Shown here in pieces: positions 24,503-47,373 of a DNA stretch of 60,045 nt. The notes beneath the pieces are model-generated. The model was not told the origin of the DNA. It saw only the letters and a list, made by a program, of their open reading frames with translations, and ran no database searches. The position numbers were made by a program, and so were the translations under genes. Position 1 is the stretch's first letter. Every line of letters begins with the position of its first letter. This DNA is from a virus. Its lineage: Duplodnaviria > Caudoviricetes. The stretch spans positions 1 to 60,045 of the IMG/VR virus record IMGVR_UViG_3300034196_000061; one strand, given 5' to 3'.

Positions 24503-24688
24503 ATGGCCGACGCAGCATCAATCCCGCCGAAATTTATCCCCGACGAGCAGCTTCACGGCCGCGACAACAGCGGCGGTCCCGGATTTACCCCGCACACTGC
24601 CGACTTCGGCGACGGCGGCTACACCACCGGCCCGAAACCGCACCTTGGAACTGGTGGCGATTCCGGCAACAAGTCAGGAAAAAAGTGA
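24503..24688 (+). CDS. Hypothetical protein
   Basis: AAGGAG RBS, 61 aa. Confidence 0.55.
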   Translation: MADAASIPPKFIPDEQLHGRDNSGGPGFTPHTADFGDGGYTTGPKPHLGTGGDSGNKSGKK

Positions 24689-24924: not shown

Positions 24925-24929
24925 CGCAC

Positions 24930-25355
24930 ATGCTCGACAAAACGCTTCCGCACGGCGAAGTCGTGGGCTTCGGTTTTCGCGTCTACTCTCAGGGCGGACA
25001 CCACTACGACAGCACCGGCAGACGCGTACGGGTGCTCCCTGGCCAAATAGTGGACGGGGAGCAAACGTACGTCTGTGAGTGCATCGAAGTTGAGCCCGTA
25101 CGCCCGGAGGACCGGAAGTATCCCTATCCGGACGTGCCGGGGGAGGCGGCTGCGCCGCTATCTTTCAAGGGGTGCCTCGGCACGCCGGGTGAGCCCGCGG
25201 ACCCGGCGGCGCCGGTTGAGCATAGTTGGGGTATGCTCAATGACGAAGTTCTGAAATCTGCCCTCGTGACGTACGGCGAGAAATGGACCGATCGCGACGA
25301 CGCCATAAACTTTCTTGAATCTCAGGGCAGGAAATCGAATGACGTGGACACCTGA
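24930..25355 (+). CDS. Hypothetical protein
   Basis: LDKTLPHGEV.G....YSQGGHHYD motif. Confidence 0.65.
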   Translation: MLDKTLPHGEVVGFGFRVYSQGGHHYDSTGRRVRVLPGQIVDGEQTYVCECIEVEPVRPEDRKYPYPDVPGEAAAPLSFKGCLGTPGEPADPAAPVEHSWGMLNDEVLKSALVTYGEKWTDRDDAINFLESQGRKSNDVDT

Positions 25356-26937: not shown

Positions 26938-26949
26938 GGATCAAGCGCC

Positions 26950-27633
26950 ATGGACTGGTCTACCCTGACGGCTTCGAAGGCGACAGCCGGTTCCCTGGCA
27001 AATTGGGCCAACAACAGCACGATCACCAGCGGAGCCGGAGGCGTCGCCGACATCATCTTGGGCGAGGCCGTGCTGTGGATTTCCGAGCGGCTACGGCACT
27101 GGCGAATGCTCTCAGCACCGACAACCGGCACCCTTACCGCCGTCACGGTCCCGAGCCCGACCGGTCAGGACACGGTTTCGATTCCGTCAGACCTGTTGGA
27201 GATGTACGAATTCTATTTGACGGGCACTTACTATTCCAAGGTCCCGATGAAAACCGAACAGGAAATCATCGGCGCGTGGAACTTCGACTCCTCGGGAAAC
27301 CGCGTTCCGTCGATGCCGCGGGGTTTCTTTGTCAACTCCGCGAACATCAACTTTGATTCTCCGCCAGACCGCGCCTACACGTACGCCTATACCTACTATC
27401 AAGCAATCCCCGCGCTCACGTCTGGCGCCCCGACGAATTGGCTTACCCAGCGCTATCCACGCCTGCTTCGGGCCGCCTGCATGATCGGCATATGTGAGTG
27501 GACCAAGGAGCTCGGGGGCGGGACGTATGACCGCACGTATTGGATGATGATGGCTGGCACGCACTTGGACGAAGCGCAGATGTCGAGCGATCGAAGCCGG
27601 CGCGCGACGAGCGGCGGGGTCATTTACGAATGA
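26950..27633 (+). CDS. Head-to-tail adaptor protein
   Basis: PPDRAYTY...YY..IPAL....TNWLTQRYPRLL..AC. Confidence 0.8.
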   Translation: MDWSTLTASKATAGSLANWANNSTITSGAGGVADIILGEAVLWISERLRHWRMLSAPTTGTLTAVTVPSPTGQDTVSIPSDLLEMYEFYLTGTYYSKVPMKTEQEIIGAWNFDSSGNRVPSMPRGFFVNSANINFDSPPDRAYTYAYTYYQAIPALTSGAPTNWLTQRYPRLLRAACMIGICEWTKELGGGTYDRTYWMMMAGTHLDEAQMSSDRSRRATSGGVIYE

Positions 27634-29672
27634 CCCTTCAGCCGGTCTATCTCCTGCCGGGCGTTTGCAAGGTAAATTCGGCCTATGCGTCCGGGAAACA
27701 GATCGGCGCTGGCCCGGGGCGCTACGGCACCGGTCGCTATACGGACATGAGCGGGATTCGGTTTGTTGCGGGATTTCCGGAGAAGATAGGGGGATGGCAA
27801 CAGGTCGCTTATGGGCTCGGAAGTCGGACGAACTGTGCGGTTGACTATCGCGGCTCCGACTCGTCAAACAACTTAGCTATTGGCGCGACCAAGGCGGTTT
27901 TTACGTTCAACCCCGTCAACGCATTTATTTGGTATGAAGTGACTCCGTTTAGGTATCCTAAGCAATTTAGTTCCGGTGGATTAACTCTCACGATAACAGC
28001 AAACTCGTCCATTATTTCATTAACTCAGCCCGTCGGGTTGTGGGTTAGTACTGTAGGTTGGATTTATATAAGCGTCCACGACAAACAGCCTGGGGGAATT
28101 GGGTATATAAAAGGTTGGTTTAAGCTTACAAGCGGAAACCCTTTGGTTTTTGACTGTGGCGTCGTGTCAAGCCTTTCCGCAACACAAAATCTGCAAGATG
28201 CAGTATTTTATTCAGAGTGGAATCTATTAGGATCAGCACCCATAGCAACAACCTCCGGATCACCGCTTGTCGTTGTCACGTTCTCTGGCCATGGCGCGGC
28301 GGTTGGCGACGTTGTTAGTTTCTCCGGCGCAAGCGCCGTTGGAGGTTTAACGCTGAGCGGGGACTACACAATAACTGCGGTAACGAGCACAACTTTTACC
28401 GTGAACGCAGGAAGCAACGCAGGGTCTACAACATCCGGAGGCGGGACCTTCGTAATAGTAAGGTTTCGTGCGACCATACCGACCATATCTAATGCTGCGA
28501 CATCGACGGTAGTAAACACGTTCAAAGGTTGGACCATGGCGGCGTATGGTTCAATGGTCGTGTGTGCGCCATGTGGCGGGCAGATGTTCTTTCTCAATAG
28601 CGCATATGGCGGTGGGCACGGCTACCCGATCACGCTGCCAACGGACGCTTACGCCCCAAAGAGCGTTTTGGCCATTTTTGTCACTCCGGAGCGGTTCATT
28701 GTCGCTCTCGGCATCAATGGCAACTCCATGCAGATGGCATGGTGCGATCAGAGCGACCCGACGCAATGGCAGAGCCTGCCGACAAACACGGCAAACCAGG
28801 GCCGGACGTTGCAGGGCGGCGGGTTCCTTGTTGGTGGCATTCCGGTCGGGAGCGGAATTTCGCTGATCTTCTCCAATAAGTCGTGCTTCCAAATGCAATA
28901 CATCGGCGGAAACACGGTGTATTCGACTCCGATGCTGTCAGACGTGGCCGGGCTAATTGGACCCGGAGCGGTCGCGACGCTCGGGGGCGTGGCTTTTTGG
29001 ATGAGCTCCAATGATTTCTTTGCCTACACCGGGACAGTGCAGCGTCTTCCATCCGATGATATCCGAGATTATGTTTTCACCACACTTGGCGGGAACCCAG
29101 GATTCAATTACGAATATGCCTACAACGTAGCGTGCGGAAGCAACAGGGCCAAAAATGAAATTTGGTGGTTCTATCCCGACGCTTCGCACACCGAGAACAA
29201 CCGGTATGTTATCTATCATATAGACCAACAGTGCTGGTCCGTTGGGCTTATGTCCCGCACGGCATGGTGCGACAGTCACCTGTTCTCGACGCCATATGCG
29301 TTTGATGCGGGTGGGTTTGGATATATACACGAAGTTGGCGTTGACGCGGCAGGGTCCGCTCTCGATTGCTATCTAACGACTTCCCCGATTGACATTTCAA
29401 ATGGTGATGCGGGGATGGACGTGTTTGGTTTTATACCAGATATCGAGCGGCTTTCTGGAAACCTGGCTCTCACGATATATACGCAGCAATATACAGAAGA
29501 CACTCCGGCCGCAGACGGGCCTTACACACTGGCCCCCGGCTCCCCTCCGCGTCTGGATTTGCGAAGTGACGGTAAGCTGTTGAGTTTCAAGCTGCGATCA
29601 AATGCCGTTGGTGGGGATGTGCGGCTTGGACTCTGCCGCGTTGACATAAAGCCGTCAAATCAGAGGCTTTAG
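27630..29672 (+). CDS. Tail nozzle / DNA stabilisation protein (P22 gp10-like)
   Basis: IRF..GFPEKIGGW, WCDQSDPTQW.S.PTN.A, NEIWWFYP, RYVIY, LRSDGK. Confidence 0.8.
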   Translation: MTLQPVYLLPGVCKVNSAYASGKQIGAGPGRYGTGRYTDMSGIRFVAGFPEKIGGWQQVAYGLGSRTNCAVDYRGSDSSNNLAIGATKAVFTFNPVNAFIWYEVTPFRYPKQFSSGGLTLTITANSSIISLTQPVGLWVSTVGWIYISVHDKQPGGIGYIKGWFKLTSGNPLVFDCGVVSSLSATQNLQDAVFYSEWNLLGSAPIATTSGSPLVVVTFSGHGAAVGDVVSFSGASAVGGLTLSGDYTITAVTSTTFTVNAGSNAGSTTSGGGTFVIVRFRATIPTISNAATSTVVNTFKGWTMAAYGSMVVCAPCGGQMFFLNSAYGGGHGYPITLPTDAYAPKSVLAIFVTPERFIVALGINGNSMQMAWCDQSDPTQWQSLPTNTANQGRTLQGGGFLVGGIPVGSGISLIFSNKSCFQMQYIGGNTVYSTPMLSDVAGLIGPGAVATLGGVAFWMSSNDFFAYTGTVQRLPSDDIRDYVFTTLGGNPGFNYEYAYNVACGSNRAKNEIWWFYPDASHTENNRYVIYHIDQQCWSVGLMSRTAWCDSHLFSTPYAFDAGGFGYIHEVGVDAAGSALDCYLTTSPIDISNGDAGMDVFGFIPDIERLSGNLALTIYTQQYTEDTPAADGPYTLAPGSPPRLDLRSDGKLLSFKLRSNAVGGDVRLGLCRVDIKPSNQRL

Positions 29673-29673
29673 A

Positions 29674-30957
29674 ATGTCAGATACGTTCACGACCTCACTC
29701 CGCTTTACGATGTCGTCCGACAGCGCGACGGCAATTATCATATCTGATCCTCCAAATATAAATTCCCCGCTCTATTTTACCGGTGCATCCGAATTCGATA
29801 AGGCGATGAACTTATGGGCTCAGCAAATCAAGGGGCAGATTTTCGTACAAAGCAACGTCGGAAACTCTGAGTTTGCAAAATCTATAAACTCAGATTTCAA
29901 ACTTATCGAACAGTCCATTTCAGGTTTTGCGTCTATCCCCGTTGACGGGCTGTCAAGCTACACGCTGACAGCGAACAATGGCACAGAAGACGAGGCGCGT
30001 TGCGCGGTATACCAGTTTACCGGGGCCTTGACGGCGGATTGCACCGTCGATTTGCCCGCGGTTCCCAAGATAGCTTGGGCCACTAACGCATCTTCTGCAA
30101 ATTACAAAATAATTCTTAGAAATGAAAACAGCGCAGGAAGGACATCAGAACTACCGCACTATCAATATTATCCTCAGATGTACACTCTCGTTGTGTCTGA
30201 TGGAGTTAATATTGACCAGCCAGTTATTTACTCAGATCAAGGGTTTGTATCTCGAAACGTCACAGGTGGATATGGATTTTTTGATTCAACATTTACTTAT
30301 AGAAGCACAGTTTTTGTAGACGCAAGCTACAACACTATTCTTTCAAATGTTGGATCAACAGGAACAAGGTTTTATATAACCAACCGAGCCAAAACAATAT
30401 ACTACTCTCTTGACGACAACGGAATCACAACCCTCGCCGGGTCAGATCAGGCGCCGATTAACAACAAAGTCGGCGGCATTCGTATTCTGGCGAACGGCGC
30501 AATAGATCAGTATACAACGTCAACCGTGAACGGCGTCCACAACATGGGTGTTCCGACAGGTGGGAGCTCCTTCTGCGGGTTTTTTTACAACGGCGCAAAT
30601 CCTGTCGGGTCAATCACGACAAATGGCACGACGACATCCTTCAACACGACTTCCGACTATCGGCTGAAGGAAACATTTGGCCCATACCCTTCGTCCGATG
30701 ACTTCGACAAAATAAAAGTCTACGATGGCCGTTGGTTAAATCTATTCGGCGGAGATACCGTTCATTCGCTACAGCCGCTTATCTTGGCGCATGAACTTGC
30801 GGAAGTATTTCCGTTTGCTGTCTCTGGTGAAAAAGATGCAGTAACAGACGAAGGGACTATCAAGCCACAACAGGTGGATTTTTTGTCTCTGATACCGGCG
30901 TTGATTTCTGAAATTCAGTCTCTCCGTTCTAGGCTTGCGAGGCTTGAAGCTAAGTAA
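29674..30957 (+). CDS. Tail fibre/spike with C-terminal peptidase S74-type chaperone
   Basis: TSDYRLKE cleavage motif, LAHELAEVFP.AV.GEKDA, LIPALISEIQ.L..RL. Confidence 0.85.
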   Translation: MSDTFTTSLRFTMSSDSATAIIISDPPNINSPLYFTGASEFDKAMNLWAQQIKGQIFVQSNVGNSEFAKSINSDFKLIEQSISGFASIPVDGLSSYTLTANNGTEDEARCAVYQFTGALTADCTVDLPAVPKIAWATNASSANYKIILRNENSAGRTSELPHYQYYPQMYTLVVSDGVNIDQPVIYSDQGFVSRNVTGGYGFFDSTFTYRSTVFVDASYNTILSNVGSTGTRFYITNRAKTIYYSLDDNGITTLAGSDQAPINNKVGGIRILANGAIDQYTTSTVNGVHNMGVPTGGSSFCGFFYNGANPVGSITTNGTTTSFNTTSDYRLKETFGPYPSSDDFDKIKVYDGRWLNLFGGDTVHSLQPLILAHELAEVFPFAVSGEKDAVTDEGTIKPQQVDFLSLIPALISEIQSLRSRLARLEAK

Positions 30958-31017
30958 CGCGGTTTGCCGTCTCCGCGGTTATCCTGCTAGATTGGCACAA
31001 TTAGTAGGGGAACACCA

Positions 31018-32253
31018 ATGAGCGGGACACTACAGGCGCCGCAGCCGGGCCAGCAGCTACCCCCGGAGGTTTTGGCCGCTCTGCTACAGGGCCGCGGTGG
31101 CTTTGGTGGTCAGGCCCCGCCGGGCGGCGGCCCGGCACCGGGCGGTGCACCACCCCAGGGCGGAGCTCCCGGCGGCAGGCCCCCGATTCCCCTTGGCCCC
31201 CCTCCGGGCGGACCTTCGCCGGGTGGCCCCTCTGGAATGCCGCCGGGCGGCCCGGCCCAAGGCGCTCCCCCAGGCGCTGGCGGCCCGCCACCGATGCCGG
31301 GTCCGGCGCCAGGACCCCCGCCCGGGGCAGGGCAAATCCCCGCAAACTTGGCCATGTTCGCCCGCGGCACCGTGCCCGTGCCAGGGGCGGCGCAGGGCGG
31401 GCAGATGTTCAATCCCGCCGAAATCGCAGCGATGGGCCGCAACGGGGATTCGATCGTCGCCCACCTGACGCCCGGGGAAATCACGATCCCGCCGCAGCTT
31501 CAGAACCCACGCTTGTTGGCCGAGCTCTCGCGCCACTTTCAACGGCATGGCGTTGACCTTGCACAGTTCACCGCGGGCTCTCCGGCGTCGTCGCCAAACC
31601 CCGAGACAGGGGCTCCGCAATACAACTTCATGTCCGCTCTCCTGCCGACGTTGCTTGGGATCGGCGGCGGCGTGATCGGGTCCGCGATCGGCGGCCCGAT
31701 GGGCGGCATGGCGGGCGCAAGCCTGGGATCGGGCGGCGGCACCGCGTTGACTGGTGGCAACGCCCAGCAGTCCCTTTTGTCCGGCCTTGGCAGCGGGCTT
31801 GGGTACGGCGTCGGCACCGGCTCTTTGGGCGATATCCTCGGCGGAGGCGCCGCAACCGGCGTTGCCCAAGCGAGCCCCGGGGTGTCGGCCGGCATGGCGA
31901 ACGCGCTCGGGCCGCAATCTCTCGGCTCCGCTGCGGCCAATGCCGCGCCAGCAACCGCCAGCGCGGGCGGGCTGGCGTCCGATTCACTTGGAAGTCAGTT
32001 GTCCAACGCTTGGAACACCAAGGGCGCGCTCGGGACAGCGTTCGGCGCAAACCTGGGTTACGCCCTCGCTGCGCCGACTGAAGCAAAGGCCGATACGAGC
32101 GCGATGACCGGGCACATGCCCGCAGTCAACAGCACCGGAGGATACAACGCCCGCCTCGGGAATTTCGGCACGTCAACAACCCCGACGTTCAACGGCTACG
32201 ACCCGCAGGCTGCGATGCAAGGTGGCGGCTATCGGTTTTTCAAGACAGCCTGA
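31018..32253 (+). CDS. Internal virion / DNA ejection protein
   Basis: GRNGDSIVAHLTPGE...NPETGAPQY followed by Gly-rich membrane-like segment. Confidence 0.75.
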   Translation: MSGTLQAPQPGQQLPPEVLAALLQGRGGFGGQAPPGGGPAPGGAPPQGGAPGGRPPIPLGPPPGGPSPGGPSGMPPGGPAQGAPPGAGGPPPMPGPAPGPPPGAGQIPANLAMFARGTVPVPGAAQGGQMFNPAEIAAMGRNGDSIVAHLTPGEITIPPQLQNPRLLAELSRHFQRHGVDLAQFTAGSPASSPNPETGAPQYNFMSALLPTLLGIGGGVIGSAIGGPMGGMAGASLGSGGGTALTGGNAQQSLLSGLGSGLGYGVGTGSLGDILGGGAATGVAQASPGVSAGMANALGPQSLGSAAANAAPATASAGGLASDSLGSQLSNAWNTKGALGTAFGANLGYALAAPTEAKADTSAMTGHMPAVNSTGGYNARLGNFGTSTTPTFNGYDPQAAMQGGGYRFFKTA

Positions 32254-32262
32254 AGATTTTCC

Positions 32263-32718
32263 ATGAACGATATGCAGGTTGGCCAAGCGATCATCATGCG
32301 GCTGGCGACGGAGAACATCCCGGCGCTGTGGCCGCAACTTGAGCCGCTGATTGTGCGCTCTCTGTTCGATACCCCGACCACGACAGCGGAAGACGTGTTC
32401 CGGATGCTCATGGCATACCGGGCCGATGCCTGGGTGCAGATTCAGCCCGAAACCACCACCGTACAGGCTCTGTCGATTACCGATTACGAAAGCACTCCGC
32501 AGGGTGTTTGGCTGAGAGTTTGGCTGTGCGCTGTTGCTGATGGATACCGACTGAAAACCCAGGAGTTTCGCAGCGCAATCGAACGCTGGAAAACAAGGCA
32601 GCGCTGCCGCGGGCTTTCGCTTGTTGGCCGGCATGGTTGGGTAAAGCTGTTCCCCGACGCAAAAGTTGAGGGGGTGATGATGCGAACCACCGATGCCTAC
32701 GTGGAGGATTCGCCATGA
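32263..32718 (+). CDS. GNAT-fold virion assembly protein (T7 gp13 / P22 gp14-like position)
   Basis: LWPQLEPLI...ERW...CRGLSLVGRHGW.KL. Confidence 0.6.
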   Translation: MNDMQVGQAIIMRLATENIPALWPQLEPLIVRSLFDTPTTTAEDVFRMLMAYRADAWVQIQPETTTVQALSITDYESTPQGVWLRVWLCAVADGYRLKTQEFRSAIERWKTRQRCRGLSLVGRHGWVKLFPDAKVEGVMMRTTDAYVEDSP

Positions 32719-34106
32719 GTAGCGGCGGCGGAGGGAGTAGCAGTCAGACATCAACTGTAACCCAAACCATACCTCAGTTCGAACAGGACTTCGCGCAAGC
32801 GAACCAAAATCTTGCGAACGATCTCGGCTCAACACCGTATCCGGTGTACCAGGGGCAGCTTCAGGCGCCTTTGACATCATTGCAGCAACAGGCTCTGAAA
32901 ACCGTAGGAGACGCCGCCAACAGCTACCGGCCTGATTTGCAAAAAGCAAACAACACGCTGGACAATTCCTCGTATCTTTTGCGCCAGTTCGATAATTTGT
33001 CGGGGCAGACAAGCGCGAACGCAAGCAATGACCCGGTAGCGATGGGGCAGGCTTACATGCCGAGCCTTATGGGCGGCGCGCAAAACTCTATCACCATGGG
33101 ATCAAATTACGCTCCGGGGCTCATGTCGGCCGCAAGCCAAGCCGGCAACAACACCGCTTCGCTCGGCGACGCAGGAGCGTTGGAACAAACCGGCGCGGCT
33201 CTTGGAACGCGCGGCGCCCAAAACATCGCACTCGACCCGAGCGATACGGCGACGGTCCAACGGTTTATGAATCCGTACGTGCAAGCGGCTCTCGATCCGC
33301 AGATACAGCAACTCAATTTGCAGTACGGAAAGCAGGCGCAGGATTTGGCGTCGCAAGCGACCTCGGCCGGCGCCTTCGGCGACGCTCGGCTTGGTGTTAG
33401 TCAGAGCCTCAACAACTATTACAACAACCTCGCGACCTCCGGAGTTGAAGCGCAGGGCTACAACACCGCGTACAACAACGCGATGAGCACGATTGGAAAT
33501 CAGCAGCAGCTTGGCCTCGGGGAAATGAACGGTGCCAGTTCCGCATTCAATCAAGCGGGAACACTTCGCCAGGGGCAACAGGGGTTGCAGCTTCAGGGCG
33601 CACAGATCGGCAACCAAATCCTCACCGGACAACAGGCAAATCAGTTGTCAGCTACAGGATTGCAGAACACCATCTTGACCGGTCAGCAGCAAGCCGGATT
33701 CAACCAAATGGCCGCGGCGCAGGCGGCGCAAAAGAACCTGATGGAAGAACAGGCCGCGCAACTCGCGCGCTCGCAGCAGTACCAATCTCTCGGAACGTCG
33801 GCGCAAACCCTCGGGTTGAATGCGTCGAATGCCAAGTGGGCGGCCGGGCAGGCGGAACAGCAGCAGCAGCAGACGGCCGATAACCTCGCTTATCAGCAAT
33901 ATATGAACCAAGTGAACTGGCCATATCAGCAACTCAACGTGCGCGAGTCTGCGCTCAGCAACAGCCCATACACGATGCAGAACGCCGTCACCCTGCCTGG
34001 GACCTCCAATTCTGCGACGAACCTTGGCGCGTTCGCCAGCCTGTTGGGGCTGTCGGGCGCGAGCTCCGGATGGGGCAGCAGCACCGTTCCGCAAGCGATA
34101 AAGTGA
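32715..34106 (+). CDS. DNA ejection protein
   Basis: MSSGGGGSSSQTST..IP, FMNPYVQ, AGAFGDAR, YQQY....NWPYQQL. Confidence 0.75.
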   Translation: MSSGGGGSSSQTSTVTQTIPQFEQDFAQANQNLANDLGSTPYPVYQGQLQAPLTSLQQQALKTVGDAANSYRPDLQKANNTLDNSSYLLRQFDNLSGQTSANASNDPVAMGQAYMPSLMGGAQNSITMGSNYAPGLMSAASQAGNNTASLGDAGALEQTGAALGTRGAQNIALDPSDTATVQRFMNPYVQAALDPQIQQLNLQYGKQAQDLASQATSAGAFGDARLGVSQSLNNYYNNLATSGVEAQGYNTAYNNAMSTIGNQQQLGLGEMNGASSAFNQAGTLRQGQQGLQLQGAQIGNQILTGQQANQLSATGLQNTILTGQQQAGFNQMAAAQAAQKNLMEEQAAQLARSQQYQSLGTSAQTLGLNASNAKWAAGQAEQQQQQTADNLAYQQYMNQVNWPYQQLNVRESALSNSPYTMQNAVTLPGTSNSATNLGAFASLLGLSGASSGWGSSTVPQAIK

Positions 34107-34110
34107 TGCC

Positions 34111-36534
34111 ATGACACAAGACCCGCTCGACATCTCCCGCACGGATCGCCCCGGAAACGAAGCGACTCTACTCGGCGCCAGTCCGGACTTTTGGCACAAC
34201 CTCGCGAATTTCGGGTTGTCAACGATCGTCGCCGCGAACGCGCGGAATCCGAACGGGTTTCTGACTTATGGCCAAGGCTCTGCCGGACCTGTTGCGGCCG
34301 GGCTCCTGGCAGCGCAGCAGCAGAACATGGGAGAGGCGGAGGGCCGCAGCACGCAAGCGGGGCGCGATATCGAGACGCGCACCAAAACCTTGATGCTGCC
34401 GTACCAGCTTCAGCTTGCGGGCCTGAATGCCGACATCAACAAGGCGCTTCTCAAAGAGGTAAACAGCCCCGACGGTACAGAATCTCCCGCAGCGCCATCA
34501 GAGCCGAGTGGAGGGTTTGGCCAGACCGGCAGGCTGGCGCCCACGGCGCCAGCGACGCCAGGGCAGGGACCTCCCGCCTCCCGGTCGGACTCAGCCGGCG
34601 GCACGCTGCCGACAGGGACGCCGCCGGCCGGAGGGCGGACCTTCGCTGCGGGGATCGCGGGTTCCGAATCCGGCGGCGAGCGCAACCCCGACACTGCGAC
34701 CAATTCGCTTTGGCCAGCAGAGCGCGGCGGGCCGCTCGGACGGCACCAGTTTGCCGCCAGGACCTGGGACGATTTCGTGCGCGACAACCCGACGTATTTC
34801 GCGGGGATGACGCCGCAGCAAGCCCAGGCGGCACGAGCCGACCCCGCCCTGTCGGAACGGGCTACCAACTGGTACGCAACACAGAACGCGCCGATTTTGG
34901 CCCGCGCCGGAATGCCGGTGACGAACCAGACGCTGGCGCTGGCCCACACCCTCGGGCCGGCGGACGCGGTTGCGGCTCTACAGGCCCCGCCAACGATGAA
35001 CCTGATCGACGCGCTGGCCGTCCGCAATCCGGGCCACGCCGCCGCGGTCGCCGCCGCCAACCCGACGTACCGCAACATGACGGTGGGGCAGTTTGCCCAG
35101 CGCTACGCCGCATTCAACGGTTTGGCACCGGTTGCCGGCATCGCCTACACGCCGCAGGGACCCGGCGCAACGGCAGGGGGACCGCCCCCAAGCGCGGTCG
35201 CCGGCCCGGGAGCGCCCGCGCCCCCAGGCCCGCAGCTTGCCGCTACCGCTCCGCCCGGCGGCGGTCCCACGGCGCCGGGCGGATCACCAGCACCGGCAGC
35301 ACCGGCAGCACCGGCAGGATCACCAGCACCGGCAGCACCGGCAGCACCGGCAGGATCACCAGCACCGGCAGCGCCGGCAGGAGCACCAGCACCAGCGGCG
35401 GCGCCAGCGGTGGCGCCAGCACCCGGGCAACCGACCGGCAATGCGGCGTACGTTGCCGAGATTCAGCAGCAGATTGCCGCGGCCACGGCCCGCGCCCGAA
35501 AGAACAACCTCATGGCGACGCTGTTGCAGGGCTCCGGCCGCGACGGCTCTTCGTTCGCTACCCAAGCCGCCAAAGACGCCGAGTTGGCCAACGCTCTTCG
35601 GGAAAAGCTTTACTCACAGACTCCGGTTCGTGAGGGCCAACAGGTATTCTCCGGAAAGGGGCATGTGCTTTCGTCAACTCCGTCCCGTGTGACTTCGATA
35701 AATCGGCAAACCAATGAACCGGGAACCGAGCTTCGCAACCCTGACGGAAGTTTGGTTCCGAACAGCTTTGTTCCGGCAGGGCTCCCGAAGGCGTACGAGG
35801 TTCTTGCAGACAACGCCTCAAAGAAATACGAGGAAATGTCCAAGAGCTTCAATCTCGGAATGGGGGGATTGCAGAGCCTTGAAGGGATGGAGATCGGCCT
35901 TCGGTCGCTCAGTGCGGATAATGGTTTCCTCGCCCCCGGCGCATTCGACTCCGCTCGCGGGGCGATTGCTAATTCGTTGAACACCGTTTTTCGTCAGTTC
36001 GGTTTTAATGAGCTATTTGACCCGTCAAAAGTAGCGACGTGGCAAGACTTGCAGAAAGAGACTAGTCGGTTGGGTTTCCAGTTCGTCAGCAGCTTTTTGG
36101 GCCAACAGCGCGAGGCGGCACAGACGATCGAACGCGGGATTTCAGCCGTTCCCGGAACGCACAACACGCCCGAAGGCGCAATCTTGGTCATCAACGGAGT
36201 CCGCGAAACCATCAAGCGCGGACTTGATGAATACGCTTACATGACAAAGTGGATTCAGGACCCGTCGCACAAGGGAAACTTTGTCGGCGCAGATGTTGCG
36301 TTCGCTGCGGCCCGCCCTCCGGAAGCGTATGCCGACCGGGCAATCAGTCAGGTCCACCCTTTCACCGTCAAGCCGGATACCGACCTGTCGCGCTATCTGC
36401 CGGGGACTTTGGTAACGCCTCTGGACGCGGAGGGGAGGCCGATGTTGAACCCGAACACGGGCAAGCCGGTTGTCAGGGCTGTTTCCGGCGAAGTCGATAT
36501 GTGGCGCAGCAACCGCGCTCCGGTGGGGCGATAG
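34111..36534 (+). CDS. Ejection protein with lysozyme / lytic transglycosylase-like domain
   Basis: GSESGG...GRHQF..RTW...ALAHTLGP. Confidence 0.75.
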   Translation: MTQDPLDISRTDRPGNEATLLGASPDFWHNLANFGLSTIVAANARNPNGFLTYGQGSAGPVAAGLLAAQQQNMGEAEGRSTQAGRDIETRTKTLMLPYQLQLAGLNADINKALLKEVNSPDGTESPAAPSEPSGGFGQTGRLAPTAPATPGQGPPASRSDSAGGTLPTGTPPAGGRTFAAGIAGSESGGERNPDTATNSLWPAERGGPLGRHQFAARTWDDFVRDNPTYFAGMTPQQAQAARADPALSERATNWYATQNAPILARAGMPVTNQTLALAHTLGPADAVAALQAPPTMNLIDALAVRNPGHAAAVAAANPTYRNMTVGQFAQRYAAFNGLAPVAGIAYTPQGPGATAGGPPPSAVAGPGAPAPPGPQLAATAPPGGGPTAPGGSPAPAAPAAPAGSPAPAAPAAPAGSPAPAAPAGAPAPAAAPAVAPAPGQPTGNAAYVAEIQQQIAAATARARKNNLMATLLQGSGRDGSSFATQAAKDAELANALREKLYSQTPVREGQQVFSGKGHVLSSTPSRVTSINRQTNEPGTELRNPDGSLVPNSFVPAGLPKAYEVLADNASKKYEEMSKSFNLGMGGLQSLEGMEIGLRSLSADNGFLAPGAFDSARGAIANSLNTVFRQFGFNELFDPSKVATWQDLQKETSRLGFQFVSSFLGQQREAAQTIERGISAVPGTHNTPEGAILVINGVRETIKRGLDEYAYMTKWIQDPSHKGNFVGADVAFAAARPPEAYADRAISQVHPFTVKPDTDLSRYLPGTLVTPLDAEGRPMLNPNTGKPVVRAVSGEVDMWRSNRAPVGR
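35281..35400 (+). repeat. 36-bp tandem repeat (GSPAPAAPAAPA) made of 9-bp units
   Basis: GGATCACCAGCACCGGCAGCACCGGCAGCACCGGCA twice plus a degenerate third copy. Confidence 0.85.
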
Positions 36535-38886
36535 ATGTCTGGCGCCATTGCCGTAGACCCTTGGGCCGGCAGACTGGACCCCGCGTTTGACGATCCGATT
36601 GCGCCACCCGCCGCCGCCCGGCCGCCTGCTTCGCCTGTCGCTCCGGTTGCGCCGGCCGCGCCCGCCGCGGACCCGTACGCCGGCCGTCTCGGGGATGCGA
36701 TTGAAGCCCCCCTTGTGCCGCGCGCACCACCCCGCACCGACGCCGGAGGCATGGGCCGGAACATCGCCGCTGGCGCCATCGAAGGCGCTGGCGGAATGCT
36801 CAATATCATTTCGGACCCGTTCGGCAACCTGATCGGCCGCCCGGTAGTCCGCGCCGGCATGTTTGCTCACGATGCGCTGGCCCCGTACACGGGCGCGACG
36901 CGCTTCACGGACGAAGATCGGCGGGCCATGCTTGACGATACAGTGCCCCAACCGGGCACGCGCATTGCCAACCGCGTCGGGGCGTGGCTTGGCGCCCCCT
37001 CGCCAGAGTCTGTCGCGGTCACGACGCCCAGCGAGGGGTGGGCACGCGCAGCAGCCGCGGGCGCTCTCGGCGGAATTCCCTTTGGTTTCGGGACCGCTGC
37101 AATCGGCGCGGCGGGCGCCCCGCTCAGTCAGGAAGCCGCTCAACGCGCCGGGGCCGCGGCGCCGGAGTGGGCAAAACCGTACGTGGAGCCGGCCGCAGCG
37201 GGGGCGGCGGCTCTCGCGCTGCCCGTCGCCGGCCGGACGGCAGCGGGCGGCCTCGGAATGGCCGCCAGGGCGGCGCTTGTGCCGCGCGACGCCGAGCTTC
37301 AGCGGCTGTTGCAGTACGCCCAGCAACAGGACATCCCGGCGACAGTCGGCGGCGTGACGCAAAGCCCGTTCGCCAAGACGATGGACTCCGTGCTCCGGTC
37401 AGTCCCGGGATCGGGGTACGCCGGCCTCGACGCCGAGATGCAGAGCGCCATCAACCGCGCGGCCAATCGCACGATGGGCCTTGATGCGCAGACGCTGCGC
37501 TTGGCCAACTTGCCAGATGACAAGGTGACGGGCGCGCATTTCAATCTTGCGCACAGGCTCTCAGCGGGAGAAATGCAGAGGATCGAATCGACGTATCCGC
37601 TGCGGCTTGATCCGCAGTTGGGCGCGGACCTCCGCGCGATCATCGGCCGCTTCAACCCGAGCACGATTGCGCAACACGAAGCGACGGCGATTGAAAGTAG
37701 CCTCACGCAATTTCTGGACACCGCACTCGAAAACCAGCGGCGGAGCGGAATTGCAGGCGAAATCCCGGGGACCGTGTACGGAAACTTCGTGCACACGGGG
37801 GCGCCGATCGAAAGCGCGATTGGTTCCACGTCGCCGAACATGCGCCGCGCCAACACGGAAATTCTGCGGGCGCTACAGGACGCCTACACGCGATCACTTC
37901 CGGCGAACGAAGCCGGAGCGTACCACGCCGCGCGGGTGAACTATTCGAACAAGGAAGCGCTGTCGCCGATTGCCGGCCGGGCCGACGTGCCGGGCGGAGC
38001 TCACCCGAGCACGGGCGACATCGTTCCCGAACAGCTACGCGGCATCGTCAACCGGGCGCGCGGCGGGCCGGAAGTCGCCTACCTCAACCCAGGCGACGAT
38101 CGTTTGAATGATTTGGCCCAACTGACTCAGCGGCTGAAGCAACCCCGGAGCTCCAACACCAGCGAGCGCAGTTTTGCCCGCCGGACGCTTGAGGGCATCC
38201 CCCATATCGTTACGGCTCTTGGGGCCGCGGCGATGGAGCGCGGGGCGATGCCGGAGTTCATGCACCCAACGACAGTCGGGCCGACGCTACTCGGGGCGGG
38301 TGCGCTCGGCTTCCTGGCACGCGGGCTCGGGGCCGGACTGCGCACCCCGGCGCTGCCCGAAGGCACCTTCAGCCAGCGGCTTGGGCGCGCCGTCACGGAT
38401 AGCCTGCCGGCCGCGGTTGCCGGCGCGGCCGGCGGCGCCGAGACGCCCACGATCAACCCGGCGACCGGGCTTCCGCAGTACAACCTCGCCGACGCGCAGG
38501 CGGCCAATGCCGCATCGGGCCACCCGCTTGTTTCTGGATTACTCGCGTCTGGCGCGAAATATAGCGATTGGGTTCGCGCTCACCGTGCAGGGATCATCCG
38601 CGAGTTCGGCGGACAAGGATTCCAACGGATGATGCAACTAGGTGCTTCACTTTCGCGTGGGAACACTATATTACGTTCCATGGTTGACTTGTTCAACTCA
38701 CGGTCGGGGCTTCCCCCGATGTTGTCTCATCTCGGGGTGCGATCTCCCGACGATCTGATACTTGCGGCGGTCCGAAAATCGGGCCTCGCGAACGTGCTGT
38801 CTGGACCTTCAATGCCAAATGGCCGTGTCAGTAATTGGGCATTGAAGCAGGTTGCTAAGGCTATTGGCGGGGATACCGGAACCTGA
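36535..38886 (+). CDS. Large internal virion / ejection protein
   Basis: 783 aa Ala-rich, SSNTSER and INPATGLPQYN motifs, last of the structural operon. Confidence 0.7.
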   Translation: MSGAIAVDPWAGRLDPAFDDPIAPPAAARPPASPVAPVAPAAPAADPYAGRLGDAIEAPLVPRAPPRTDAGGMGRNIAAGAIEGAGGMLNIISDPFGNLIGRPVVRAGMFAHDALAPYTGATRFTDEDRRAMLDDTVPQPGTRIANRVGAWLGAPSPESVAVTTPSEGWARAAAAGALGGIPFGFGTAAIGAAGAPLSQEAAQRAGAAAPEWAKPYVEPAAAGAAALALPVAGRTAAGGLGMAARAALVPRDAELQRLLQYAQQQDIPATVGGVTQSPFAKTMDSVLRSVPGSGYAGLDAEMQSAINRAANRTMGLDAQTLRLANLPDDKVTGAHFNLAHRLSAGEMQRIESTYPLRLDPQLGADLRAIIGRFNPSTIAQHEATAIESSLTQFLDTALENQRRSGIAGEIPGTVYGNFVHTGAPIESAIGSTSPNMRRANTEILRALQDAYTRSLPANEAGAYHAARVNYSNKEALSPIAGRADVPGGAHPSTGDIVPEQLRGIVNRARGGPEVAYLNPGDDRLNDLAQLTQRLKQPRSSNTSERSFARRTLEGIPHIVTALGAAAMERGAMPEFMHPTTVGPTLLGAGALGFLARGLGAGLRTPALPEGTFSQRLGRAVTDSLPAAVAGAAGGAETPTINPATGLPQYNLADAQAANAASGHPLVSGLLASGAKYSDWVRAHRAGIIREFGGQGFQRMMQLGASLSRGNTILRSMVDLFNSRSGLPPMLSHLGVRSPDDLILAAVRKSGLANVLSGPSMPNGRVSNWALKQVAKAIGGDTGT

Positions 38887-39425: not shown

Positions 39426-39971
39426 ATGACGCAATTTGAGCGCTGCGTTTCTTTCACCCTCGCGGAAGAGGGCGACGAGTACACCGACGACCCGCGCGAT
39501 CCGGGCGGACCGACCCGATGGGGGATCACCCTGGCGGACCTCCGCCGCTGGCGTGAGGGGCACGCTCACCCCGACGAGCCGGTGACGGTGACGGCGGGGG
39601 ACGTGCGCGACATGGGCCAACAGGAAGCCCGTGAGATATACAGGGCGAAGTATTGGAACGTGGTGCAGGGCGACTATCTTTCGTACGGACTTGACCTGTG
39701 CGTCTTTGACTACGGCGTGAACAGCGGTACCGTTCGCAGCGTGAAGCTATTGCAGAGTTTTTTGCGCACGAATGTTGACGGTGTTCTTGGCCCAAAGACG
39801 CTGGCGGCGGTGCGCGGCGTCAACGATCTCCCCGGGCTGATCGGCCGGTTTCAGGACGCCCGACAAGCGTTTCTGGAGTCGCTGAGCACGTTCGACCACT
39901 TCGGCCGCGGGTGGACGGCTCGAGTCGCGCGCATCCGAGTCGCCGCCCTGGCCATGGCGACGAGGGGCTGA
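39426..39971 (+). CDS. Endolysin, glycoside hydrolase family 108 with peptidoglycan-binding domain
   Basis: EEG..YTDDPRDPGGPTRWGIT, IYRAKYW, FDYGVNSG, DGVLGPKTL, FGRGWTARV. Confidence 0.92.
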   Translation: MTQFERCVSFTLAEEGDEYTDDPRDPGGPTRWGITLADLRRWREGHAHPDEPVTVTAGDVRDMGQQEAREIYRAKYWNVVQGDYLSYGLDLCVFDYGVNSGTVRSVKLLQSFLRTNVDGVLGPKTLAAVRGVNDLPGLIGRFQDARQAFLESLSTFDHFGRGWTARVARIRVAALAMATRG

Positions 39972-39982
39972 AGCAAAAAAAG

Positions 39983-40216
39983 TTATCCACATTTGCCTGT
40001 TTTATGGGCAAAGTTATCCACGTTATCCACAGGAAATCGCGGAATCTTGAATCAGTGGGGTGTGATCTTTTGTACGCACGCCAAAAGTGCCAGTTTTTGG
40101 GATATCAATAGGTTACGGGACTTATCCCGTGATCTATTGTAGGGCATTCTAATAGAAGAACTAATAGCTTTCTTCCTTCTGTCCGGCAGGGGCTTGTCTC
40201 CTACAAAAGATCACAC
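39983..40216. promoter_or_regulatory. Plasmid-type replication origin (oriV): DnaA boxes, IHF site, iterons
   Basis: TTATCCACA at 39983 and 40023, TTATCCACG at 40014; TATCAATAGGTTA at 40103; GTGATCTWTTGTA at 40062, 40129 and inverted at 40202-40214. Confidence 0.8.
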
Positions 40217-40252
40217 TCCCGCCGATCTCCCGGATGTGCCAGCCTTGGTCGC

Positions 40253-41176
40253 ATGGGAAAGGTGCATCGGCTGATAGCGGAGGAAGGGCGGCAAGGAGCA
40301 ATGCGCTTCGATGTGCCGCGCACGGTCATTGAAGCCGCTTCGGCTTACATGGCCAATGAGGAAGGCGGCATTGAATGCCTCTACTCGGGTTGGTGCCAAG
40401 CGGCGCTGCCGCATCGGCGCATCCCTGACGGCGACGACTGGAAGGTAACGAGCGAGTTTGTAACGCTGGTCGTTGAGAGTGGCGTTCGCCTGGATCAAGC
40501 TAACAACATGGTCCATGTCGGCGTGCCGTTCGGATCGAAAGCCCGACTGATTTTGCTCTACCTGCAAGCGGAGGCTTTGCGCACGGACAACCGAGAAGTT
40601 GAGCTTGGGAAAAGTCTTCGTTCCTGGCTTGCGAAGCTTGGAATCCCGGTTGGCGGAAAGAACGTGCGCGAGGTTCGCGAACAATCGGACCGGCTGGCCC
40701 GGTGCCGGATTTCCTTCCACTTCCAGCGCGGCCGGAAGCGCGCCCTCGTCAATCAGAACATCATGGATACCGCGATGTTCGAAGAGGACGAAGGCGACGG
40801 CGGCGTTGTCTCGACATTTCTGGACCGGGCTTGCCTATCGGAAGCATTCTTTGCGGAGCTCAAGCGGCACCCTGTCCCGCTGGAAGAGTCGGCCATCCGG
40901 GCGCTGTCCAACAACTCTCAGGGGCTCGACATCTATGCGTGGCTTGCCTACCGACTGCACTCGCTGAAGGCCGCGACGCCGATCAATTGGCCCGCCCTCA
41001 AGCCGCAATTTGGCGCTGGTGTTGGGCGCATGGACAATTTCCGCCGGCTGTTCCTCCCCAACCTGCATCTGGCTCTGGCGGTCTATCCGGACGCCAAGGT
41101 TGACCTCACAGACACCGGCCTGTTGCTGCACCCGTCCCGGCCGCCCGTCGCGCCGCGCGTGTTCGCCGTCGCCTGA
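40253..41176 (+). CDS. repA: Plasmid replication initiator RepA (RepA_C, IncW/pBBR1-like)
   Basis: CQAALPHR, GVPFGSKARLILLYL, REQ..RL, HPVPL, LDIYAWLAYRL, L..QFG, PSRPPV. Confidence 0.9.
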   Translation: MGKVHRLIAEEGRQGAMRFDVPRTVIEAASAYMANEEGGIECLYSGWCQAALPHRRIPDGDDWKVTSEFVTLVVESGVRLDQANNMVHVGVPFGSKARLILLYLQAEALRTDNREVELGKSLRSWLAKLGIPVGGKNVREVREQSDRLARCRISFHFQRGRKRALVNQNIMDTAMFEEDEGDGGVVSTFLDRACLSEAFFAELKRHPVPLEESAIRALSNNSQGLDIYAWLAYRLHSLKAATPINWPALKPQFGAGVGRMDNFRRLFLPNLHLALAVYPDAKVDLTDTGLLLHPSRPPVAPRVFAVA

Positions 41177-41183: not shown

Positions 41184-41600
41184 ATGCCCTGGGAATCGCT
41201 GGAAATTCGGGGGCTGTATCGACTCGCCGGGCGGGACGTGGTTCCGGAACCCAGCTTCATGGAGTGGGCGGCTTGGCGAGGGCACGCGGATTGCACGGTT
41301 CGGCGCACCAATGTTTCCAAGCCGGGAATGAGCCATCCAACGTTGATCTCAACCGTGTTCATCGGGGTTGATCTTGGGTGCAAAGACGGTGAGCTCCCCC
41401 TGGTGTTCGAAACCATGATCTTTGTCGGCGGTCGGGCAAGTGGCTCACAATGGCGCCGCAGCACCTGGGAAGACGCCGAAGCCTGCCACGACGACGCGGT
41501 TGCCATGGCCACTGCCGCGGCCATGGCCACGGGCTCAGAGGGCGTGGAAGTCCACGATGTGCCTAGCCCGAGCTCAGGGCAGAGCGGGCCAACTGCGTAA
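41184..41600 (+). CDS. Conserved phage hypothetical protein
   Basis: ISTVFIGVD.....PLVFETMIF...STWEDAEACH. Confidence 0.7.
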   Translation: MPWESLEIRGLYRLAGRDVVPEPSFMEWAAWRGHADCTVRRTNVSKPGMSHPTLISTVFIGVDLGCKDGELPLVFETMIFVGGRASGSQWRRSTWEDAEACHDDAVAMATAAAMATGSEGVEVHDVPSPSSGQSGPTA

Positions 41601-46160: not shown

Positions 46161-46175
46161 TTATGAAAACATCCA

Positions 46176-46193
46176 ATGATAATTGATTATCAT
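46176..46193. promoter_or_regulatory. Palindromic operator candidate
   Basis: ATGATAAT-TG-ATTATCAT in the AT-rich divergent intergenic region. Confidence 0.45.
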
Positions 46194-46351
46194 GTATTCT
46201 TCATGCTTGCTCGTAAATGTCGATTTATGTTGCAGCATTTCTTTTGCTCCATCGCTTGAGACAACAAGAACATGCAGATCACTTAAATTTCAACTCACTG
46301 TTTCTTGAGAATTGTGTTGTTTCAAAGCGGCCATGAAGGTATGGCGTGCTT

Positions 46352-46795
46352 ATGGCCAAGCCGTTTTCGCTTACGGCGCCTGTCCCGACCGAAGATGATT
46401 TGCACGTAAGCGTCAGAAGCGCTCTGTCGATCGCGATTGCGCCACCTGGAAAAACCTCCCGGTGCGGCGTGCTCTGGTATTCGGTGGAAGCCCGGAACGC
46501 GGGCGGGCGGATGATCCGGACGAAGAGCGGGGCCATGATCCCGCTTGAGGCGGTCAACAGAAAGCGTCGCGGGTGTGTCGCCGGGGTGCCCGACGTGCAT
46601 CTGATGTACGTCGGCAGGCTCTATCTGATCGAGCTCAAGCGCGAGCGGCGCGGCAGCACCAGCGCGGACCAAAAAGAGTTGCACAGCGAGTACGCTTGCG
46701 CAGGCATCCCCGTCCGAATCGCGCGGACCCTATCGGATGTCCTCTACTGCCTCGCCGAGTGGGAGATTCCCCTGACGCACCGTCTGGCGGTGTAG
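46352..46795 (+). CDS. VRR-NUC / PD-(D/E)XK nuclease (resolvase-like)
   Basis: GCVAGVPDV......LIELKR..G..SADQKE. Confidence 0.8.
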   Translation: MAKPFSLTAPVPTEDDLHVSVRSALSIAIAPPGKTSRCGVLWYSVEARNAGGRMIRTKSGAMIPLEAVNRKRRGCVAGVPDVHLMYVGRLYLIELKRERRGSTSADQKELHSEYACAGIPVRIARTLSDVLYCLAEWEIPLTHRLAV

Positions 46796-46872
46796 GGGCC
46801 GGATCGCGCCGGATCGCAGTCCGTCCCACCGGCTTAAAGTCCGTCCTGCCACATCGCGGCGCTGTGCTGGGC

Positions 46873-46901
46873 TTTACACATACGTCAAAATGACAGATAA
46901 T
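46873..46901 (+). promoter_or_regulatory. Sigma70-like promoter with palindromic operator in the spacer
   Basis: TTTACA-17 bp-GATAAT; GTCA-AAA-TGAC at 46884-46894. Confidence 0.65.
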
Positions 46902-46946
46902 TTCCATGTCGCGGCAATGGTGTCGCGGCAATCCGGAGGACGAGTG

Positions 46947-47018
46947 ATGCAATTTTGCATCGACTTCGCGATCCGGGTTGGGAAGTGGCGACTCAGGTTA
47001 CGACTGAGCCGCCGATAG
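46947..47018 (+). CDS. 23-aa basic/hydrophobic micropeptide MQFCIDFAIRVGKWRLRLRLSRR
   Basis: GGAGG at 46935, ATG 7 nt later, downstream of promoter and 5' hairpin. Confidence 0.6.
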   Translation: MQFCIDFAIRVGKWRLRLRLSRR

Positions 47019-47100
47019 CTTCCCTACCTGGGGGTGGGTCGCCGCAAGGCGGCCCACTTCCGAGTAGGAGATTCAGCGGACGGAAATCAAGGTGGGCACA

Positions 47101-47373
47101 ATGGAGAACCAGAACAACACCGGGTCATCCCGCGGCACGCCGGAAAGCGCCGCGTGGTTCCGGGCCGAGTTGGCGGAAATCGGCGAAACACAGTCCGGAT
47201 TGGCGCGGCTGATGAAACGGTGCGGCGACGATCGCGAGCAAGGCAACATCCTTCGCAGCATCCAACGCATGGCCGCAGGTGACGCTCGCATTTCCGGTGA
47301 AATGCGGGTGTTGCTACATTTCCTGCGGACAGGTCGCCGCAAGCGGATGGAACGGGAGCAGTCGGCCGCCTAA
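47101..47373 (+). CDS. Cro/XRE-like HTH regulator
   Basis: FRAELAEIGETQSGLARLM...SIQRMAAGDARISGEMRVLL. Confidence 0.75.
   Translation: MENQNNTGSSRGTPESAAWFRAELAEIGETQSGLARLMKRCGDDREQGNILRSIQRMAAGDARISGEMRVLLHFLRTGRRKRMEREQSAA

Follow-up and report, generated by a model that had tools for sequence, protein, structure and literature searches.

A predicted RepA_C iteron replicon in a podovirus-like phage genome from peat, a candidate phage-plasmid

We analysed the IMG/VR virus record IMGVR_UViG_3300034196_000061 over its whole length of 60,045 nucleotides (nt), hereafter the window, which represents a 60-kb tailed phage from a peat metagenome. Between its endolysin gene and a phage open reading frame (ORF) lies an ori-repA cassette of 1.2 kb (about 39972-41176), which has all the parts of an iteron-type theta replicon of the RepA_C family. 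An earlier reading of the letters alone (the original prediction) had seen in this segment an IncW/pBBR1-type plasmid replicon carried by a podovirus, and had proposed plasmid-state lysogeny. The parts of the cassette and the two genes that adjoin it (lengths of proteins in amino acids, aa) are as follows.

39426..39971, plus strand: endolysin gene with GH108 and PG_binding_3 domains (Pfam, PHROGs), the last recognisable late gene, adjoining the origin on its upstream side
39983..40031, plus strand: cluster of three DnaA boxes, TTATCCACA at 39983-39991 and 40023-40031 and TTATCCACG at 40014-40022
40049..40058, plus strand: GAATCAGTGG motif containing one GANTC site, present also in the Rhodovastum plasmid origin (L010 has it twice)
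40062-40074, plus strand: direct iteron 1, GTGATCTTTTGTA, with an 18-nt extended form GGGGTGTGATCTTTTGTA at 40057..40074
40103..40115, plus strand: site resembling the integration host factor (IHF) consensus, TATCAATAGGTTA, found by pattern search
40115-40130, plus strand: palindrome ACGGGA-N4-TCCCGT, leading into direct iteron 2 (the part 40115..40143)
40129-40141, plus strand: direct iteron 2, GTGATCTATTGTA
40144..40199, plus strand: AT-rich spacer with a CTAATAG doublet (40149-55 and 40161-67)
40202-40214, minus strand: inverted iteron, within 40200..40219, 38 nt 5' of the repA ATG at 40253
40253..41176, plus strand: repA, intact, encoding a 307-aa initiator of the RepA_C family (PF04796)
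41184..41600, plus strand: 138-aa ORF 3' of repA, whose nearest Atlas clusters are 86-100% viral

The three DnaA boxes, the IHF site, the palindrome, the three iterons and the intact repA named in the original prediction are thus all in place. The iteron copies, each perfect or one base off, are the sole matches in 60 kb even when two mismatches are allowed (7 of 100 shuffles give at least 3 at that looseness), with 0.001 exact matches expected; the repeat can be followed over 18 nt, and in an unbiased test none of 300 shuffles of the 281-nt intergenic region yielded a 13-mer family with at least 3 copies. Counted over the whole window at up to one mismatch, DnaA boxes are not above chance (6 against 5.42 expected, a number reached by 41 of 100 shuffles), but only 0.21 exact boxes are expected per window, so that three boxes crowded into 49 nt, two without a mismatch, stand out. 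For the IHF consensus the window gives 2 matches where 0.81 are expected, a count equalled or exceeded by 22 of 100 shuffles, and the single site in the origin is by itself not above chance. A tandem-repeat scan detected no second iteron array. The AT-rich spacer may be the unwinding region, the repA promoter or both, and the inverted iteron may be the operator through which repA is autoregulated; a scan around the cassette returned no promoter-like site and 5 terminator-like ones, against 4.2 expected. The origin holds two GANTC sites, the second of them (GAATC) at 40042-40046, which may be CcrM-type methylation sites. The ORF at 41184-41600 found no match next to plasmid repA genes and is a phage-type hypothetical protein, not a plasmid-derived one.

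We compared the DNA upstream of repA with that of the six relatives having enough upstream sequence, three plasmids and three metagenomic contigs. All six possess direct iterons and one inverted copy shortly before repA, each with its own repeat sequence, and both gene and layout are homologous to those of real plasmids; the original prediction had called the layout typical of iteron plasmids. The 3-4 direct iterons of the relatives consist of a close pair, 21-23 nt apart, then one placed 54-67 nt further on; an AT-rich stretch follows, and then the inverted iteron close to repA. The window has a pair spaced by 67 nt and the inverted copy; the close pair is missing, and three strong DnaA boxes take its place. 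A spacing of 66-67 nt between the last two direct iterons is common to the window and three relatives (L009, L012 and L013), and the CTAATAG-like doublet, its units 11-12 nt apart, to the window and 4 of 7 relatives. The RepA_C replicons of Acetobacteraceae plasmids (for example Gluconobacter oxydans 621H pGOX2, Roseomonas marmotae p1318-5 and Rhodovastum atsumiense RHOApc) are built in the same order and have in common with the window the direct iterons, the 'TATCCCGTG'-type lead-in that precedes direct iteron 2, the CTAATAG doublet and the inverted iteron before repA. Unlike these replicons, that of the window has its own iteron sequence, is embedded in a phage genome and has no adjacent ParA or RHH gene; on pGOX2 and p1318-5, ParA flanks repA. 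By this comparison, the window origin is a recognisable member of the RepA_C origin family, leaner in iterons and stronger in DnaA boxes.

The ORFs of the window were scanned against Pfam (294 ORFs), PHROGs (205 ORFs, which do not include every small ORF right of 57.1 kb), NCBIfam (65) and PADLOC (69), ORFs nested inside virion genes being covered by six-frame family searches only. RepA matches PF04796 over profile positions 1-167 of 181 with 82.2 bits (E 7e-23; cut-off 26), and the six-frame search with that profile gives 83.9 bits. It has matches on 1097 of 72,556 PLSDB plasmid records, 971 of which cover at least 80% of the query. The best come from Rhodovastum, Roseomonas and G. oxydans pGOX2 (59-61% identity, 98-100% coverage), and the top Acetobacteraceae plasmid RepAs, which also include those of Acetobacter and Komagataeibacter, are 53-61% identical and colinear from the first residue. 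A search of 5.8 billion proteins gave, apart from the protein itself, a nearest relative with 70% identity and behind it a dense cloud at 56-63% whose named members are from Roseomonas, Rhodovastum, Belnapia and an Acetobacteraceae metagenome-assembled genome; the JGI metagenomes contributed 7 loci, all 56-62% identical and on contigs of 1-2.2 kb. The named members of the cloud point to Acetobacteraceae, of which the host of the phage is probably a member. The IncW/pBBR1-type label gained no support: Acetobacteraceae plasmids come closest, and the only enterobacterial relative examined (35% identity) is of type IncN. NCBIfam gave nothing further on RepA or on the small ORFs, and no PDB relative of RepA was found by sequence. 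An AlphaFold model (65 sequences; predicted local distance difference test, pLDDT, 82.6) matches domains 2-3 of RctB of Vibrio chromosome 2 (E 4e-7, template-modelling, TM, score 0.55/0.59) at only 11-12% sequence identity, RctB having extra domains, and more weakly a Rep WH1 domain (6h24) and the DNA co-crystal entries 9yzm and 9yzp, which we take to hold RepE. The model suggests that RepA adopts a tandem winged-helix fold, as iteron-binding initiators do; its closest known counterparts by fold are RctB and the RepE/pi-type plasmid initiators. By sequence, layout and fold, the cassette is a member of the RepA_C iteron-replicon family.

Among the 119 nearest relatives of RepA, 100 columns reach a conservation of 95% or more; RepA departs from them at five positions (L17M, G41E, R96K, R128K and G164A) and agrees in the other 95. 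In a leave-one-out analysis of these 119 relatives the median was 1 change and the maximum 7, with at least 5 changes in 6 of them. The pendant branch of RepA (0.28) falls inside the family range (90th percentile 0.37), its codon-usage score lies inside the range of the other non-structural genes of the phage, and the protein looks to be under constraint. As it is 60-70% identical to every sampled relative, it is no recent copy of any sampled plasmid. These data bear on the possibility that the cassette is cargo without a role in phage replication, either a neutral plasmid piece lodged at the permissive end of the late operon or an anti-plasmid tool, the iterons of which would titrate the RepA of resident plasmids of the same incompatibility. 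Cargo of this kind would account for a piece of only 1.2 kb located at a late/early junction where a related contig (see below) has nothing, for the absence of the ParA found beside repA on pGOX2 and p1318-5, for fewer iterons than in the plasmids, and for a singleton. It accounts poorly for an intact RepA with its conserved columns kept, for iterons of which all three copies are perfect or one base off, for an identity to all sampled relatives that excludes a recent pick-up and for a codon usage like that of other phage genes, and we regard it as improbable.

RepA_C is rare in phages: a single phage record of 50,697, itself only 3.9 kb long, gave a tblastn match (E 1e-5 or better), and the cassette DNA matched none of these records. 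In IMG/VR, RepA used as a single protein found nothing, and a search by the family motifs of a 5-sequence alignment gave 65 pattern hits, none of them confirmed, and hence no other contig with RepA_C. The same arrangement is seen in no second genome and comes from a single metagenome at about 10x depth, as would be expected if a plasmid fragment had been misjoined into a phage contig. The stretch is also carried, however, by one public peat metagenome run, which may be its source, and for which the Logan contigs were produced by a different assembler. An independent Logan contig of 6430 nt includes the complete 307-aa RepA and is identical to the window over 40046-41772, the match continuing through 596 nt of phage DNA after the repA stop; the length of this contig implies that it reaches about 4.9 kb upstream of repA, our comparison covering 40046 onward. 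Depth is even across the region (9.9-10 against 9.0-9.4; about 10 along the 6430-nt contig), phage genes are present on both flanks, and a 1.2-kb insert would require two misjoins. An assembly artefact is thus very improbable. In the same data, a Logan record of low depth (3.3 against about 9.4) joins 59453 back to 41156 with two extra bases, and a second, with no more than 21 nt on one side, passes over 42448-48697. The window has no repeats at 59453/41156 or 42448/48697, and the odd joints may come from a rearranged minority variant or a subgenomic circle, or be spurious matches.

The two ends of the window each hold one piece of a split 187-aa gene.

1..306, minus strand: first piece, the N-terminal 102 codons, running off the left window end
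59786..60043, minus strand: second piece, the C-terminal 85 codons and the stop, entering at the right window end

When the first piece was searched against 1.84 billion representative proteins, 19 matches were obtained. The best was a 187-aa protein (P0004) called on one JGI/IMG contig of 4793 nt other than that of the window, residues 1-102 of which are the first end piece and the last 85 residues the second. Bases 60044-60045 of the window (CT) duplicate bases 1-2, and removal of this overlap preserves the reading frame; homologues of P0004 of 166-183 aa cross the junction uninterrupted, one of them (P0008) being 46% identical end to end. P0004 belongs to a small family, with members of 161-183 aa, and matched no Pfam, PHROG, NCBIfam or PADLOC family. 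Taken together, these matches indicate that the genome closes on itself as a 60,043-bp circle and that the window is the whole genome, a size in line with that of its relatives (about 58.4 kb for the related contig, 50-60 kb for cultured phages). IMG/VR labels the record linear and CheckV puts it at 66% complete, an estimate that we rejected, as its ends join in frame into one gene. Closure excludes a missing third of the genome in which an integrase could hide, and six-frame searches of the whole record for integrase (PF00589), resolvase (PF00239) and protelomerase (PF16684) families were negative, the Pfam scan of the 294 ORFs showed no machinery of integration or of linear plasmids, and no transposase was found; the absence of a recognisable integrase claimed by the original prediction therefore stands. 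The sole rve signal (13.8 bits) lies inside the TerL gene and contains two in-frame stops. An ordinary integrating prophage with its integrase beyond the contig, for which the linear label and the completeness estimate might speak, is scarcely credible: the ends join into a gene known from another contig and from homologues, host genes occur at neither end, and the units of the relatives measure 50-60 kb. Closure suits a circular plasmid and circularly permuted or concatemeric virion DNA equally well, and is thus silent on lifestyle.

The remaining features are those of a tailed phage with a replication module of its own.

3941-5293, minus strand: VapE/D5-type helicase of the second replication module (Pfam, PHROGs)
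5277-6104, minus strand: Prim-Pol of the same module (Pfam, PHROGs), which as a whole spans 3941..6104
8708..38886, plus strand: packaging and virion module (Pfam, PHROGs)
8708-10399, plus strand: large terminase, TerL (Pfam, PHROGs)
16032-18623, plus strand: SU10-type portal (SU10_portal, E 3e-39)
18641-19033, plus strand: GP4 gp80-like protein (GP4 gp80, E 3e-31)
22696-23682, plus strand: major head protein (phrog_1357, 'major head protein')
26950-27633, plus strand: SU10-type adaptor (SU10_adaptor, E 4e-16)
up to 38886, plus strand: tail-fibre and DNA-ejection proteins (PHROGs match the ejection proteins)
42714-43880, in the leftward block: orphan CcrM-related adenine methyltransferase
44529-45578, minus strand: RecT-like annealing protein (Pfam, PHROGs)
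45591-46160, minus strand: gp157/Gam-like protein (Pfam, PHROGs)
46161..47373, plus strand: AT-rich divergent region followed by a plus-strand island, a lead only

Packaging, virion and lysis functions are all represented (TerL, portal, capsid, adaptor, tail fibre, ejection proteins and endolysin). As no tape-measure, tube or sheath family appeared among the Pfam and PHROGs matches, podovirus is a fitting description, in agreement with the original prediction. The N4-gp56-type capsid that it had also assigned was not confirmed: the head protein matched phrog_1357 only, with no Pfam match and no PDB sequence match, and portal and adaptor are SU10-type. The virion module is, by these matches, that of a SU10/Xuquatrovirus-like podovirus. 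A codon-usage screen delimits one rightward gene block from about 6156 to 41600; nearly all other genes are on the minus strand, from 6104 through the left window end and then from the right end down to 41563, which leaves a single divergence point at about 6.1 kb and a single convergence point at about 41.2-41.6 kb. Prim-Pol and the VapE/D5-type helicase head the leftward operon at the divergence point, and the leftward block also encodes the orphan methyltransferase, DUF932 and DUF6874. No DNA polymerase family was found in the Pfam scans of the 294 ORFs, a tRNA scan and Rfam gave no matches, and GC skew showed no clean origin or terminus signal.

Some further observations concern this gene map. 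Two Lar-like restriction-alleviation genes are present, one in each transcription block (7990-8208, plus strand; 51858-52043, minus strand). A 540-aa protein of the virion block (25315-26937) has a class-I methyltransferase domain (Methyltransf_11, E 9e-8) and, in the related contig, a homologue with 56% identity. A stretch of 118 nt is common to an LPD23-domain gene and the next gene (12476-12593 and 13711-13828, 88% identity), a 716-aa ORF has internal repeats of 60/120 nt at 20368-20805, and a 9-nt unit recurs about 10 times at 35281-35420 in the gene for an 807-aa protein.

The only related IMG/VR contig found (G001) shares with the window, in the same order, the terminase (59% identity), portal (57%), capsid (73%), adaptor, further virion genes and the endolysin. 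Left of 8.7 kb and right of 40 kb the window has no counterpart in it, and the early and replication genes of G001, with an AAA_25 helicase, are unrelated to those of the window. Neither RepA_C nor an integrase was found in G001, the endolysin of which directly faces the converging early operon; the ori-repA cassette is therefore an addition in the window, placed where the late block ends. The G001 record overlaps with itself at its ends over about 5.9 kb, with an identity of only about 90%, and this 'complete' contig of 64.3 kb looks like two strains of a genome of about 58.4 kb joined together. It also encodes a protein with a ribosomal L7/L12 C-terminal domain, a PAPS-reductase-like protein and DUF6745. 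Among cultured phages, relatives of the portal occur in 32 of 50,697 records, the closest with 30-32% identity over about 67% of the length: Vibrio podoviruses of about 50-57 kb and Escherichia phages including Pondi and HelliStehle Bas95. The Xuquatrovirus phages (PTXU04, Pondi), Bas95 and the Vibrio LS29-type phages are thus podoviruses like that of the window, with genomes of about 50-60 kb, and the relation is distant. They were isolated as lytic or virulent phages, and none matched the window RepA in the tblastn search of phage records. Bas95 is described as a lytic isolate related to the Xuquatrovirus podoviruses of about 60 kb (PMC11990801), and the 52,228-nt podovirus LS29 of Vibrio crassostreae is treated among virulent phages (PMC13230959). 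We found no tyrosine integrase in Bas95 or in Vibrio 1.232.O. As G001, Bas95 and Vibrio 1.232.O are all devoid of an integrase, its absence is the default of the lineage and, contrary to the original prediction, no argument for plasmid lysogeny.

What, then, would the cassette do in this phage? The reading that we put first, tentatively and at slightly less than even probability, is that it maintains the phage DNA as an extrachromosomal plasmid replicated by the host, in a phage-plasmid or a long-lived carrier state. RepA, as a tandem winged-helix initiator, would bind the two direct iterons, and host DnaA the three boxes, with IHF perhaps bending the DNA between; the AT-rich spacer would open, and the host helicase and replisome would be loaded. 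RepA bound to the inverted iteron before repA would restrain its own synthesis. Productive, lytic replication would be run from the phage's Prim-Pol/VapE module and RecT. Because the phage has this module and RecT of its own, and no integration machinery, plasmid-state replication is the most likely role of the cassette. In iteron plasmids, an autorepressed, iteron-limited initiator is a device of copy-number control. The position of the origin may point the same way: at the convergence point, forks leaving the RepA origin would meet all transcription head-on, while those leaving the divergence point with the Prim-Pol and helicase genes would run with it. Head-on forks would be tolerable only with most genes silent, and the combination of a copy-control initiator with such a position favours the plasmid or carrier state. 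The firing of the replicon, its timing and the lifestyle of the phage are what we infer from these features.

The main rival, which we judge somewhat unlikely, is that the phage is virulent, or pseudolysogenic at most, and puts the captured RepA origin to use in productive infection. RepA and DnaA would recruit the host replisome for an early theta phase, since the phage encodes no DNA polymerase (no such family in the Pfam scans), and Prim-Pol/VapE with RecT would then take over. This fits well with relatives that share the virion module and are lytic isolates without integrase, with the failure to find repressor, partition or addiction genes, and with a repA placed directly after the late and lysis genes in the same orientation; even the extra DnaA boxes, absent from the plasmid relatives, could be an adaptation to fast, host-dependent firing. 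However, an autorepressed, iteron-limited initiator suits copy control and not runaway replication, forks leaving an origin at the operon convergence would run head-on into all transcription, and a primase-helicase module is already in place at the divergence point. G001, moreover, has no RepA_C, and beyond the 3.9-kb entry no phage record among the 50,697 matched RepA in tblastn.

Several further findings weigh against maintenance as a plasmid. Neither CbiA/ParA nor ParB_N was found in six frames of the whole record, and the scans against Pfam, PHROGs, NCBIfam and PADLOC detected neither integrase nor excisionase, neither repressor nor antirepressor, and no partition, toxin-antitoxin or defence system; the orphan methyltransferase alone had a link to defence. 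The lineage, with relatives that have no integrase and are described as lytic or virulent, may simply be virulent. Portal relatives occur on none of the 72,556 PLSDB plasmid records, nor in the species genomes reached by a pattern scan, where the portal alignment and RepA each gave 47 pattern hits and no confirmed one. The cassette itself carries 2 direct iterons where the plasmid relatives have 3-4, and its DnaA-box cluster is not shared by them (0-1 boxes within 800 nt upstream of repA). repA is co-oriented with the late operon, from which no terminator or promoter match separates it. A single metagenome is the only source, and since RepA has no close relative anywhere (best 70%), its conservation within the phage lineage cannot be demonstrated.

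The leads to a regulator are only weak. The divergent intergenic region at 46161-46345 has 34% GC and contains an 18-nt palindrome (46176-46193), perfect and without a second copy in the window. A 93-aa ORF (47092-47373), some 0.9 kb further downstream, lies on a plus-strand island inside the leftward block; its structural neighbours in the Atlas belong to HTH_3/Cro-C1/HigA clusters (TM 0.65), and it has no Pfam match even at E 5. It may be a helix-turn-helix regulator and, with the palindrome region, may form a regulatory switch. A weak HTH_3 signal (13 bits) at 11349-11450 falls in a 108-aa ORF (11163-11489; HTH_58, E 0.014), and a possible RHH ORF at 48252-48434 is likewise weak (E 0.0055). 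The 108-aa ORF is situated between the terminase and the virion genes and has a homologue in G001 with 42% identity. Of the plasmid-state lysogeny claimed by the original prediction, the complete plasmid-like replicon and the lack of an integrase stand; partition, addiction and clear repressor genes were not found, and no relative has been seen as a plasmid. The phage is in consequence a candidate phage-plasmid only, having the phage functions and the replicon but no partition genes that we could find. One might speculate, more doubtfully, that an integrase-free and otherwise lytic podovirus became a minimal phage-plasmid by capture of a 1.2-kb Acetobacteraceae ori-repA, which was remodelled to DnaA dependence (three boxes, fewer iterons), and that it persists with no partition, addiction or classical immunity genes.

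Phage P1 uses oriR and RepA for its plasmid state and a separate lytic replicon. The phage of the window resembles P1 (compare PMC10983915) in its combination of DnaA boxes, iterons and an autoregulated RepA, in its second replication system and in needing no integration. P1 differs in being a myovirus, and its ParAB, its addiction module and its known repressor circuit have no counterpart that we could find in the window. Few phage-plasmids are podoviruses: those listed by Pfeifer et al. (PMC7969092) are the Klebsiella F116 community (IncFIB) and a crAssphage singleton with plasmid-like replication genes. A phage-plasmid lifestyle has been proposed for crAssphage (Carjivirus communis) from its RepL genes and the absence of an integrase (PMC10983915). 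As described in those papers, crAssphage and the F116-community Klebsiella phage-plasmids, predicted podoviruses, are like the phage of the window short-tailed and equipped with plasmid-type replication genes, and crAssphage has no reported integrase or lysogeny module. They differ from it in Rep family (RepL and IncFIB against RepA_C), host and virion lineage, and a toxin-antitoxin pair, of which we found none, is reported for crAssphage. Within Acetobacteraceae, pJPL21 and pAML2 of Bombella apis are given as putative phage-plasmids (bioRxiv 10.1101/2025.10.31.685865). Compared by description, they too combine plasmid replication proteins with phage genes, but they are plasmids of isolates and are reported to have toxin-antitoxin systems. 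The tyPPing preprint reports hundreds of singleton phage-plasmid candidates. With podoviral and Acetobacteraceae candidates already published in these sources, the suggestion of an undescribed phage-plasmid group was overstated. No RepA_C replicon in a podovirus is described in the accessible main text of the phage-plasmid literature on podoviruses and Acetobacteraceae, supplementary tables being outside this scope.

If the replicon fails, or if it serves lytic growth, the cassette is a case of ordinary plasmid-phage gene flow. The cassette is also a compact candidate origin for vectors of acetic-acid bacteria. If the replicon works, it would belong to a phage-plasmid from a poorly sampled corner (peat, a probable Acetobacteraceae host and a Xuquatrovirus-like podovirus) with the smallest imaginable set of plasmid genes. 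Such a minimal phage-plasmid, if real, would show how little turns a phage of virulent type into a plasmid or carrier-state element. Phage-plasmids could then arise by capture of a bare origin instead of the fusion of whole elements, and this would bear on how many of the 'virulent-looking' phages of metagenomes can persist in cells.

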